From NCBI GenBank assembly GCA_963798485.1, contig CAWCTR010000001.1:1-64000 (forward strand): a DNA stretch of 64,000 nt, given 5' to 3'. Both the position numbers and the translations under genes were made by a program. The DNA is from an uncultured delta proteobacterium (GTDB taxonomy: Bacteria > Desulfobacterota > Desulfomonilia > UBA1062). Below, in pieces: positions 39,962-42,900 of this stretch; position 1 is the first letter of the stretch; every line of letters begins with the position of its first letter. The notes under the pieces were generated by a model. It worked only from the letters and a program-made list of their open reading frames with translations, was not told where the DNA came from and did not search any database.

Positions 39962-42900
39962 TTAATAAAGACCTCTCTTACAATCTATCAGCACCTCGCT
40001 CAAGTTCACCAGGTTTTCTTCATCCGGACGCGCATGGAAGATGCCGTACTCCGGGCCCATGGCAGGGTCAACGCCGCGCAGGTACACATAGAATATCCCC
40101 CCGAAGTGCTTGTCATACGAATACCCTTCCAGCCGGTTCTTGAGATACTGGTGCAGGGCCACGGTGTAGAGGTGGTACTGGAGGATGTAGCTGTCCCTGA
40201 TCATGGATTTCAGGAGCGCATCATGGCTGTAGTCATCCACGCTGTTACCCAGGTGGTTGGACTTCCAGTCGATGAGGTAATATCTGCCCTCGTGCTGGAA
40301 AACCAGGTCCATGAAGCCCCGGAGGAAGCCTTTGACCGGGTCAAAAGAGAGGCGGGGGGATATGAATGGGAACGGGAATTTTTCCCCCTCTCCCTGGCCC
40401 TCTCCCCTTCCAGCGTGGGATTGTTGGGTGCTGTCATTGCGAGGGAGTGAAACGACCGTGGCAATCTCGTTCTTGCATGAATCAACAGGGATTGCCACGC
40501 TCCCTCCGGTCGCTCGCAATGACTCGGAGTTTAGAATGGTCTTGTCTCCAGCAGGATAGAGAACAGGCGCAATGGGCTGAACCCCCTCTCCCTGTCCCTC
40601 TCCCTCCCCCTCCAGGGGAGAGGGGACTCCACTGACACTCCTCCCCCTTGATGGGGGAGGCTGGGAGAGGGTGAAGATTTGCTCCCCCTCTCCCTGTCCT
40701 TCTCCCACGAGGGGAGAGAGGATCTTCATGGAGGGCATGCAGTCAGCAAGGGCCTGTTCGAGGATGCCGGGTGTGAGCGGCTTTATAGGGAACATGAATT
40801 CCAGCTCTGTGAGCCGGTCGCTGTTTCCCAGTCCTGATAGCGTGACCCCGCCCAGGTCGACATCCAATACCTTTCTCACCATGTCCGTCACCACATCGGT
40901 CCAGGTCGGATCGAAGCCGTGGTCTGCCAGCGTGTCCTCCACCATGGCCCGGATCGCCTCATCACCTGCCGTGAAATCGATCTTCTCGAAGACCTCGTGC
41001 AGGAGTGTGCCTGCACGCGCGCCTTTGGGGAAGGAGAAGATATCCTTCGGCCTCTCCCCCTTCTCTTCCGCCCCATCCCGCTGACCCTGCCATAGGGTGT
41101 CCCGGTCGGCGGCCTCACTGCCTTTGTGCAGGCCGTGGATGAACGCGGTATAGCTGGCCATGCCCCAGGTGCGGTCAATGGTCCCCTCAAAGACCCTGGC
41201 TGCAGGTTCTTCCGGAGTCAAGGCAGGCCGCACAGGCAGCTCGGGCCGGCCCTGGGGTATGTCCAGGACCCGGGCATGGCCTGAGCCTGCACCGAGGAAT
41301 TCCTCCAGGCCTCTCCGCAGGTCCGTTGCATCCATGCCCTTCATGAGATGGACCATGGCCGAGCCCTCGGCCCCCTTCACCTTTCCCCAGGCCACATAGC
41401 ACCGGTTCTTTGCCCGGGTGAGCGCCACGTAGAGGAGCCTCACGTTCTCGGCCAGGATTTCCACCATGGCCTTTTCCCGGTGGTCCTCCTGTTCGTTTGA
41501 GCCCAGGTCCAGCACTGCGGTGTGTGCATCATCGTGGAACAGCACGCCCTCCCCCTTGTCCGGTTTTGCAGAGCCCCAGGCAAAGGGGCAGAACACCACC
41601 GGGAATTCGAGCCCCTTGCTCTTGTGCACGGTCATGACCCTCACCGCCTCGTCGTCGCTCTCGAGCCTGAGCTGATACTCGTCGCTGCCGGGCACGGCAG
41701 GGTCCCTGCGTTCTGCAAGCCATTTTTTCAGACCCTGCATGCCCAGCTTCGCCGGCCGCCTCTGCCTTGCCCAGGAGCTCAGCGATGTGGAGAACATTGG
41801 TGAGGGCCCGCTCGCCCGAGGCCATGCCCAGCAGGCGCTCCCGCACCCGCTGCCCGTCCAGGAGCCTGCGGATCATGGGCGTAAAGCCGGAGCGGGCCCA
41901 GAGCTCGTGATAGTCCAGGAATTGCTCGATCCAGCGCTCCCATGCCGCCTCGTCCGTACTGAGCGCATCGATGGCCCCATGATCAAGGGCGAAGATTCGG
42001 GTCATGAGCGCGGTGCGCACGAGCCCCTCGCGATACGGCTCGGCCAGGGCGGCAAGCAGCACCTCCATCTCGAAGGCCTCGCCCGAGAGGAACACGTTCT
42101 CGTCGCTGTAGAGCACGCAGGGGATGGCGGCCGCGTGCAGGCTGTCGCGGACCATGCGCGCCTGGGTGTTGGTGCGCACGAGCACTGCCATGTCAGAGGG
42201 TTTTAATCCTTCGTTCCCGAGCTTTAAAGCGTCCGTGCTTGAAAGGTTCAGGAGCCGGGAGATCTCGAAGCCTGCGGCCCTGCACACCGCCCTGCCCGCC
42301 TGCTCCACCGTGAGCTCGCTTGCGCCGCCCGCGTCCAGGAACCAGACCGTAAGAAGGCCTTCATCGAGCCCGACAAGCGTCTTCCGGCCGGTCTTTGGCG
42401 CAGGCTCGGCTGCCTCGAAGCGGATCCAGTCGAACACAAAGGGATACTGCGCCTTTGCGAACACCGCGTTCACCGCCTCTATCAGGCCGGGCTCGCTCCG
42501 CCAGTTGTGGATCAGGGTGTGCTTGTGCGCCCCTCCACGCTATGGGCGGCCCTAGCATAGGTGAACACGTCCGCGCCCCGGAAGCTGTAGATGGCCTGCT
42601 TGGGGTCGCCGATGAAGAACAGGCATGAGCCTGCAAAGCACCGCTTGAAGATCTCGTACTGCAAAGGGTCCGTGTCCTGGAACTCATCGATCAGGGCTGC
42701 CTTGAACCTGCTTGCTACCGCACCGGCCAGCGCGCCACCGCCGCGGGACCGCAGGGCCTGGTGCATCCTGATGAGCAGGTCGTCGTAGTGCACGAGCCCA
42801 TGCTTCTCCTTGCGCCGCGTAAGCGCCGTATCCAGGAATGCGAGGAATTCCACCTTCAGGGAGGTAAGCTCGTCCTCGAAGGCAGCGCCCAATGCGTCGC

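Follow-up and report, generated by a model that had tools for sequence, protein, structure and literature searches.

A composite in-frame insert of palindromic repeats between the catalytic motifs of RecB in an uncultured Desulfomonilia bacterium

How do non-coding palindromic repeats come to be translated within a conserved DNA repair enzyme? This question is raised by a recB gene (exodeoxyribonuclease V beta) in the window analysed here, a stretch of 64,000 nucleotides (nt) at positions 1 to 64,000 of contig CAWCTR010000001.1 (GenBank assembly GCA_963798485.1). The source genome, from an uncultured delta proteobacterium, is a 4.3 Mb draft of 32 contigs with 6.96% contamination. The nuclease domain of its RecB contains a composite in-frame insert of 118 codons built from two families of repeats. 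We compared the locus with related genome assemblies (G0xx in the text, G000 being the source genome), with RecB proteins (P00xx) and with contigs from other metagenome runs (X1–X4). The account that we regard as probable is that a loop of the nuclease domain became a landing site for repeats, that these accreted there serially, and that the product is carried as a tolerated passenger. Coordinates of all features are collected in Table 1.

The insert was delimited by the length of the stretch running from the peptide ELEF to the peptide FDPVKGF, which was compared between the recB loci of 11 congeners. A recB match was found in 24 of the 41 related genomes searched and in 11 of the 14 within the same genus, and most of the matching genomes skip query residues ~357-475. 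Measured against congeners free of repeats, the insert amounts to 118 codons, which agrees with the in-frame insertion of about 120 residues proposed in an initial annotation of this DNA. The nearest relatives themselves carry one 48-nt unit, and by comparison with them 306 nt (102 codons) are extra. The peptides quoted in the initial annotation are present as written. They are encoded by the minus strand, within the third and final recB open reading frame (ORF), which is 611 residues long.

Alignment to E. coli RecB positions the insert precisely within the nuclease domain. Its flanks align to residues 943-1036 and 1049-1165 of the E. coli protein (PDB 1W36 chain B; E 1.1e-44), and the insertion site is the gap between residues 1036 and 1049. 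About 132 residues are present at this position here, compared with about 12 in the E. coli nuclease domain, which has the same His, Asp, Asp-x-Lys and QY motifs. These catalytic motifs flank the insert, and the motif columns are invariant. Both sides of the insert align to E. coli RecB, and the motifs are intact, as had been claimed for them at the outset. The remainder of the gene has the features that define a recB. A UvrD-type helicase is encoded by the first ORF (Pfam UvrD-helicase, E 5e-52), with UvrD_C in the second and third, and a C-terminal PD-(D/E)XK nuclease domain with its catalytic motifs (PDDEXK_1) lies in the third. The genes for RecC and RecD adjoin, recC upstream and recD downstream. 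A single uninterrupted frame is absent from this assembly and present in P0030, a RecB from another assembly that is described below. The source label of the nearest named relative protein is Desulfomonilia bacterium.

In the direction of translation, the insert consists of unit 1, unit 2, unit 3, a 32-nt linker, a family-2 palindrome, 25 nt of decayed flank, and unit 4. The initial annotation was correct in counting four units of family 1 and one palindrome of family 2, and we have assigned coordinates to each (Table 1). On the evidence of its block pattern, family 1 is the repeat published as BoxC, PIT or "triplex motif" (TM, TMECO), an identity overlooked in the initial annotation. In the sections consulted of Holder 2015 (PMC4666352), the TM pattern is given as CCCTCNCCC-N3-6-GGGNGAGGG-N3-GGGNGAGGG and the repeat is described from E. 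coli and from over 260 further bacterial genomes. The same sections count 23 copies in E. coli MG1655, where TMECO is "always" intergenic and has no mobility gene nearby, and they tie the motif to local rearrangement. The present genome contains 13 strict matches to the pattern and 20 relaxed ones (at most one mismatch per block), while three shuffled genomes contain none. The strict matches include both units that flank a small nuclease gene of the DUF559 family downstream of recB, and the relaxed matches include recB units 1 and 3 and two units in recC.

The units resemble the published repeat in several ways. They too consist of a C block, a loop, a G block, a 3-nt loop and a second G block, they are low in copy number (13 strict matches, set against the 23 reported for MG1655), and they occur both singly and as inverted pairs. 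The link to local rearrangement made in the consulted part of Holder 2015 also fits the insertion hot spot described below. The units differ from TMECO as reported there in being translated inside recB and recC instead of lying between genes, and in that two of them bound a DUF559 nuclease gene, where the published repeat has no mobility gene nearby. The second loop is mostly ACA here, compared with TTA or CCG, and hairpin folding alone was computed for our units. We treat the failure to be intergenic as a point of difference and not as a ground for denying membership by sequence. No description of TM/BoxC units in coding sequence was found in the literature searched, although the supplements of Holder 2015 may list intragenic cases in other species. 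The same literature yielded no description of a nested five-element insert between RecB catalytic motifs, nor of a link between DUF559 and TM repeats. The BoxC/TM "triplex" repeats have, to our knowledge, remained unexplained since the 1990s.

Family 2 is an element of about 135-140 nt whose copies, when aligned, share outer inverted ends and inner arms. It has the hallmarks of a MITE, a miniature transposable element with inverted repeats: it is shorter than 200 nt, it has terminal inverted repeats, it is present in many copies, and it has no coding capacity. Ten two-armed copies are present in the genome, and the inner arms of the recB copy are 34 nt long and 79% complementary. The arm at 40490-40523 is by itself matched by many unrelated contigs of other metagenomes. 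Further along the same contig, past the window, family 2 forms a cluster of at least six copies, whole or partial, within 4 kb (G000:C1:83715-87563). With the insert as query and a threshold of E 1e-3, BLAST returned only seven rows from the genome, and looser BLAST and motif searches were added.

The insert is open in one of its six frames, and that frame is the recB frame. Composition-preserving shuffles of the insert retained the open frame in just 48 of 5000 cases. These statistics fit a filter for frame-preserving variants, and they bear out the earlier suggestion that selection for an open frame had acted here. Each of the 13 strict TM units has five or six of its six frames open. Since a TM unit is nearly stop-free in all frames, its read-through requires only a length divisible by three. 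For family 2, six of the 54 frames are open in the nine other copies, compared with three of six in the recB copy, and the nearest copy has no open frame at all. The RNA of the insert is predicted to fold at -174.9 kcal/mol, against -140.6 +/- 5.2 for shuffled sequences (z -6.56), and none of 100 shuffles folds as well. An Rfam scan of 39200-40900 at E <=1 gave 27 weak hairpin-type matches, none of them near its gathering score, and on this evidence the insert is not accounted for by a known RNA family, an intron or a riboswitch.

Related genomes present the same site in a graded series of states. The ELEF-FDPVKGF stretch measures 129 nt in G014, G009, G008 and G001, 141 nt in G010, 177 nt in G011 and G002, about 183 nt in G007 (with one stray base), 252 nt in G003, and 483 nt in this genome. 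Variable-length alleles, for which the initial annotation had proposed to look in an orthologue alignment, are present, from 129 to 483 nt. G007 has a perfect TM unit at this site, and a DNA alignment places the additional 75 nt of G003 within the unit.

The series extends to the protein level. Loop length, taken from ELEF to FDP, was measured in 30 RecB sequences: 12 have a loop of 30-37 residues, 12 have one of 49-51 residues, corresponding to one unit, two have 74 residues, and single sequences have 111 and 121 residues. The longest loop, of 151 residues, belongs to P0030 and to this genome. Extra sequence in the four larger kinds of loop is mutually unrelated, and two of these kinds contain peptides typical of other palindromic repeats. 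We built a tree from 236 nuclease-domain columns of these 30 rows with the insert masked. A branch with 95/95 support separates a group of 18 rows, in which 17 have the unit, from one of 12 rows, in which 11 lack it. The exceptions are P0027, which lacks the unit, and P0026, which has the unit together with extra sequence of its own. Expanded alleles require five changes on this tree, or at least four to five origins, and they include the whole genes P0002 (1253 residues) and P0006 (1281 residues). The graded states, from none through one unit to at least four independent larger expansions, identify the site as an insertion hot spot, and the serial accretion of repeats at one site put forward in the initial annotation is upheld by them.

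Other in-frame insertions were seen during these comparisons. RecB of G002 and G003 (L015/L016) and of P0001-P0004 has a second lineage-specific insert of ~28 residues (GRVLVSDPGLNDGG...) upstream of ELEF and a further insert of ~16 residues near the domain start; both are absent from this genome. The rpoC match in the source genome has a gap at G000:C30:208918-209159, where ~80 codons are skipped in an open frame. This segment was considered as another repeat insert and set aside, its translation having no repeat-type peptide; it is probably an ordinary lineage-specific insertion.

An allele with the same insert exists as a whole gene. P0030 is a RecB of 1290 residues, encoded on an 8614-nt contig of another assembly, and belongs to the same 90% cluster as the protein of the window. 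It aligns to the pieces of recB in three ungapped alignments at 98-99% identity and reads straight through both sites at which the frame shifts in our assembly. The entire insert is present in P0030 with one of its 118 residues changed, and there are 19-20 differences elsewhere. In nature, then, this insert can be part of an intact recB, as P0030 shows.

We propose the following course of events. The RecB nuclease loop equivalent to E. coli RecB 1037-1048 would have become a landing site for hairpin-forming repeats. One BoxC/PIT/TM unit of ~48 nt may have entered first, in the ancestor of a subgroup of the genus, and further palindromic elements would later have landed in or beside this unit in separate lineages. 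In the present lineage, three more TM-type units and one MITE-like palindrome of about 135-140 nt would have brought the total to 118 extra codons. We infer this direction of events from the present-day states of the site. Variants that broke the frame would have been purged by selection on recB. What is left would be read as a surface loop rich in Gly, Glu, Pro and Ser, probably unstructured and apparently tolerated by the enzyme. The loop would thus be a neutral passenger and not a new functional domain. A likely local source of units is the DUF559 (Vsr-fold) cassette, a gene that lies between inverted TM units just downstream of recB.

Several observations weigh against this reading. Units 2 and 4 fail even the relaxed TM pattern. 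No transposition signature was found, target-site duplications included, although family-2 copies were not examined for the latter. At related DUF559 loci, units matching the pattern are present on both sides of the gene in only 10 of 70 cases, and a second DUF559 gene in this genome (G000:C30:196743-197066) is flanked by a different repeat, with PPLYKRGE-type peptides, and not by TM units. The structure model of the nuclease domain is weak overall, with a mean pLDDT (predicted local distance difference test) of 53. No contig of the other runs spans the whole insert, and its middle is uncovered. P0030 is known as a protein alone, and the palindromes and neighbours at its locus are deduced from that protein. 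Finally, the frame of recB is broken twice upstream of the insert and that of recC twice more, by frameshifts overlooked in the initial annotation. The operon may be dead in this strain, and if so no selection would at present act on the frame here.

The frameshifts bear on whether the gene is alive. There are four 1-bp shifts in the ~6.8 kb of recBC and none in the ~14.7 kb of rpoB, rpoC, dnaE and uvrA. Each of these four genes is one open frame, which rejects uniform sequencing noise as the cause; a local assembly error is possible. On balance we lean towards an error of assembly or consensus as the origin of the shifts, and a true break of recBC in this strain must be entertained as a serious if somewhat less favoured prospect. 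The early suggestion that RecB is probably functional is accordingly unsupported for this assembly, with its two shifts in recB and two in recC, and stands only in the form of the intact 1290-residue allele elsewhere.

Two related assemblies show irregularities in the same gene. In G011 (L020, G011:C168), a stretch of N (translated as 33 X) takes the place of the recB segment from ...FTYA to LGMQGL..., almost exactly the segment between both frameshifts, a hint that this part resists assembly. In G007 (L018, G007:C10; few contigs), the closest congener, recB is spread over at least four frames with the stray base right after the perfect TM unit, and these breaks look like assembly indel errors.

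Alternatively, the repeats could have accumulated without selection in a lineage that is losing recBC, with the open frame of the insert as a mere leftover. For the lineage as a whole we judge this unlikely. Such decay would explain the concentration of frameshifts in recB and recC and their absence from the four reference genes. The polarity of residue changes can be read both ways. The 20 differences between this protein and P0030 comprise 4 that look derived here, 13 that look derived in P0030 and 3 that are ambiguous. Two of the four that look derived here fall in highly conserved columns, an R to L change where R is found in 20 of 22 relatives and a D to E change where D is found in 25 of 26, as a dying gene would have it; yet prolonged neutral decay should have left more than four such residues. 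The insert is present in the intact P0030, the expanded alleles P0002 and P0006 are whole genes, and recD is whole. An open stretch of 354 nt is also rare by chance, as the shuffles show, and stop codons abound in the family-2 copies elsewhere. The run of N in G011 covers the same middle segment of recB and further tells against decay, through its hint of a hard-to-assemble stretch.

We next consider whether the insert itself could be an artefact, in which repeat-induced misassembly placed dispersed repeats in recB. Logan contigs of four runs were compared with the locus; no run shared more than a fraction of 0.24 of its words, and coverage gaps in these runs are uninformative. An X1 contig (40639-40821) and an X2 contig (40701-40851) match without a single difference. 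Contigs from X3 cover 40020-40406 (36 differences) and 40620-40826 (20 differences), at ~90% identity at both ends of the insert, and unit 4 is covered by an X3 contig at ~91% identity. The fragmented and partly contaminated state of the draft would favour misassembly, as would the fact that contigs from the other runs break inside the insert and none spans it. Against this, contigs of three samples run across the two junctions and on into the repeats, an independent assembly yields the same 1290-residue protein, and relatives have graded states at the same codon. We give misassembly almost no credence. Contig joints that skip ~890-2100 nt of recB were also examined and rejected as deletion alleles: their sides are 21-33 nt long, they start and end at conserved helicase motifs, and we read them as the helicases of other organisms.

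The predicted structure bears on whether the loop has a function of its own. The AlphaFold2 model covers the C-terminal 382 residues of RecB and was built with a 30-row alignment. Most of the core has a pLDDT of 58-92 and the expected helices and strands. Residues 126-266 have a pLDDT of 25-37 and no predicted secondary structure, a low confidence that proves neither disorder nor surface exposure. The model is consistent with the insert being a floppy loop. Alternatively, the loop might be an adaptive gain, a new interaction surface that alters RecA loading, the response to Chi or sensitivity to phage anti-RecBCD proteins. Conservation would suit such a role: between two assemblies, 1 of the 118 insert residues has changed, against 19-20 residues elsewhere; both ends of the insert recur in a relative of ~90% identity; and the recB copy of family 2 is unusually poor in stop codons. 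The low-complexity composition and lack of predicted structure speak against it, and independent lineages have unrelated sequence at the site, which fits a permissive site and not a selected sequence. The phage inhibitors Gam, gp5.9 and Abc2 target the DNA entry site or RecC and are not known to act at this loop. We consider an adaptive gain very improbable.

Table 1. Features of the recBCD region, in window coordinates.
Feature	Position	Strand	Remarks
Composite in-frame insert in RecB nuclease domain	about 40376-40729	minus	354 nt, 118 codons; from site lengths in relatives
Unit 1, TM/BoxC-type	40682-40723	minus, sense to recB	Matches published TM pattern with <=1 mismatch per block
Unit 2, TM-like	40638-40673	plus, antisense to recB	Outside even the relaxed TM pattern; classed as decayed
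Unit 3, TM/BoxC-type with extra G block	40582-40627	minus, sense	Relaxed TM pattern match at 40624
Family-2 palindrome	40433-40549	no strand	Inner arms 40433-40466 and 40490-40523; decayed outer end 40524-40549
Unit 4, two G blocks, C block decayed	40384-40407	minus	Core-motif match at 40399; C-terminal junction
recB (exodeoxyribonuclease V beta)	39962..43834	minus	Three frames in the assembly; ORFs 42512..43834, 41529..42473, 39962..41797
recB frameshift 1, one base missing	42529..42533	minus	Frame changes; X1, X2 and X4 contigs have an extra base at 42529/42531
recB frameshift 2, one base extra	41749..41766	minus	Frame returns; one contig each of X1 and X4 without the base at 41755
Twin of unit 2	39912-39944	plus	33/33 bases identical to 40643-40675 (BLAST); just past recB stop
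DUF559 cassette, recB-recD spacer	39412..39839	plus	TM unit 39412-39446 (+), DUF559 ORF 39422-39799 (+), TM unit 39805-39839 (-)
recD	37392..39329	minus	Single open frame; Pfam RecD_N, AAA_19, AAA_30
recC	43828..47167	minus	Three frames (alignment to the intact RecC of G002; RecC_C domain); shifts near 45545-45554 and 45345
Two TM-like units in recC	45993..46075	plus, antisense to recC	Relaxed TM pattern matches at 45993 and 46041

The DUF559 cassette, which the initial annotation overlooked, lies 120-550 nt downstream of the recB stop codon. Its gene has 125 codons on the strand opposite recB and a Pfam domain match (PF04480, E 6.1e-43). Both flanking units are strict TM matches, in inverted orientation. 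The spacer between recB and recD is ~710 nt here, while the two genes abut in G011 and G007. For comparison, we took 70 loci with related DUF559 genes, from many phyla. Between the flanks of 36 of these 70 there is an inverted repeat with a score of 16 or more, compared with 6 of 70 when flanks are mismatched, and almost all of these repeats are of TM type. The published pattern was found as a forward unit upstream at 24 of the loci and as a reverse unit downstream at 19, with the opposite orientations at 6 and 5, respectively. DUF559 proteins are listed as enriched among predicted programmed-inversion targets in the consulted part of PMC9881135, and this enrichment fits the flanking inverted repeats.

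A further coding insertion of the TM family, also overlooked initially, is present in recC. The two TM-like units there are translated in frame within a stretch of ~42 codons (residues ~359-401). This stretch is continuous in G002 and G011 and is skipped in G008 and G014, a distribution that marks it as an older coding insertion of the TM family. Overall, the recBCD operon holds 6 of the 20 TM pattern matches of the genome within ~10 kb, distributed over the recB loop, the recC loop and the recB-recD spacer.

These arrangements recall a known kind of selfish system. In REP/RAYT (REPIN) systems, the enzyme that mobilises the repeats is encoded by a gene lying between inverted copies of them. 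The likeness here is that a small single gene lies between two inverted hairpin repeats, with solo and paired copies elsewhere in the genome. The differences are that the gene encodes a PD-(D/E)XK, Vsr-fold DUF559 nuclease and not an HUH tyrosine transposase, and that the cassette is known from sequence alone, with units on both sides at the small minority of related loci noted above. On this footing, we suggest tentatively, and with more doubt than confidence, that a selfish REP/RAYT-like cassette with a DUF559 nuclease might lie behind the BoxC/TM repeats, which would be its ends and its solo remnants, and that it would colonise coding DNA and seed hot spots. TM ends that are nearly stop-free in six frames would make such a system able to do both. 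Clustering in recBCD could then reflect targeting of the enzyme that processes double-strand breaks, or a benefit from weakening it.

The absorption of palindromic repeats into reading frames has precedent. In-frame palindromic repeats are known from Rickettsia palindromic elements (RPEs) and some enterobacterial elements, according to the consulted part of a review (PMC10969869), and the analogy with RPEs drawn in the initial annotation holds as a way of working. As with the RPEs described there, the repeats have dispersed copies elsewhere, intergenic ones among them, and are inserted in frame and without stops in a conserved housekeeping gene, where they are read through at what are presumed to be fold-compatible loops. 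The units of the present locus are ~40 nt long, where those of RPEs in that account are ~150 nt, and the host is free-living. Furthermore, elements of two families are here nested at one codon junction and together make up 118 codons. On unit size and motif, the RPE families (RPE-1 to RPE-10) would be unrelated to the present repeats.

The recBCD operon also differs in composition from its surroundings. Its G+C content (37392-47167) is 61%, compared with 50.6% for the genome, and the flanking DNA at 48-56 kb drops to 39-48%. From this contrast, the operon may have been acquired horizontally.

The locus offers a natural series in which non-coding selfish repeats turn into protein sequence within a conserved repair enzyme, and the intact allele of 1290 residues bears 118 repeat-derived residues between its catalytic motifs. 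A repeat family published as intergenic and without a partner is extended into coding DNA, beside a candidate partner nuclease. For work on RecBCD, the loop equivalent to E. coli RecB 1037-1048 is marked as permissive for large insertions. The value of this RecB lies in its being an extreme and well-resolved example of the absorption of repeats into a protein.

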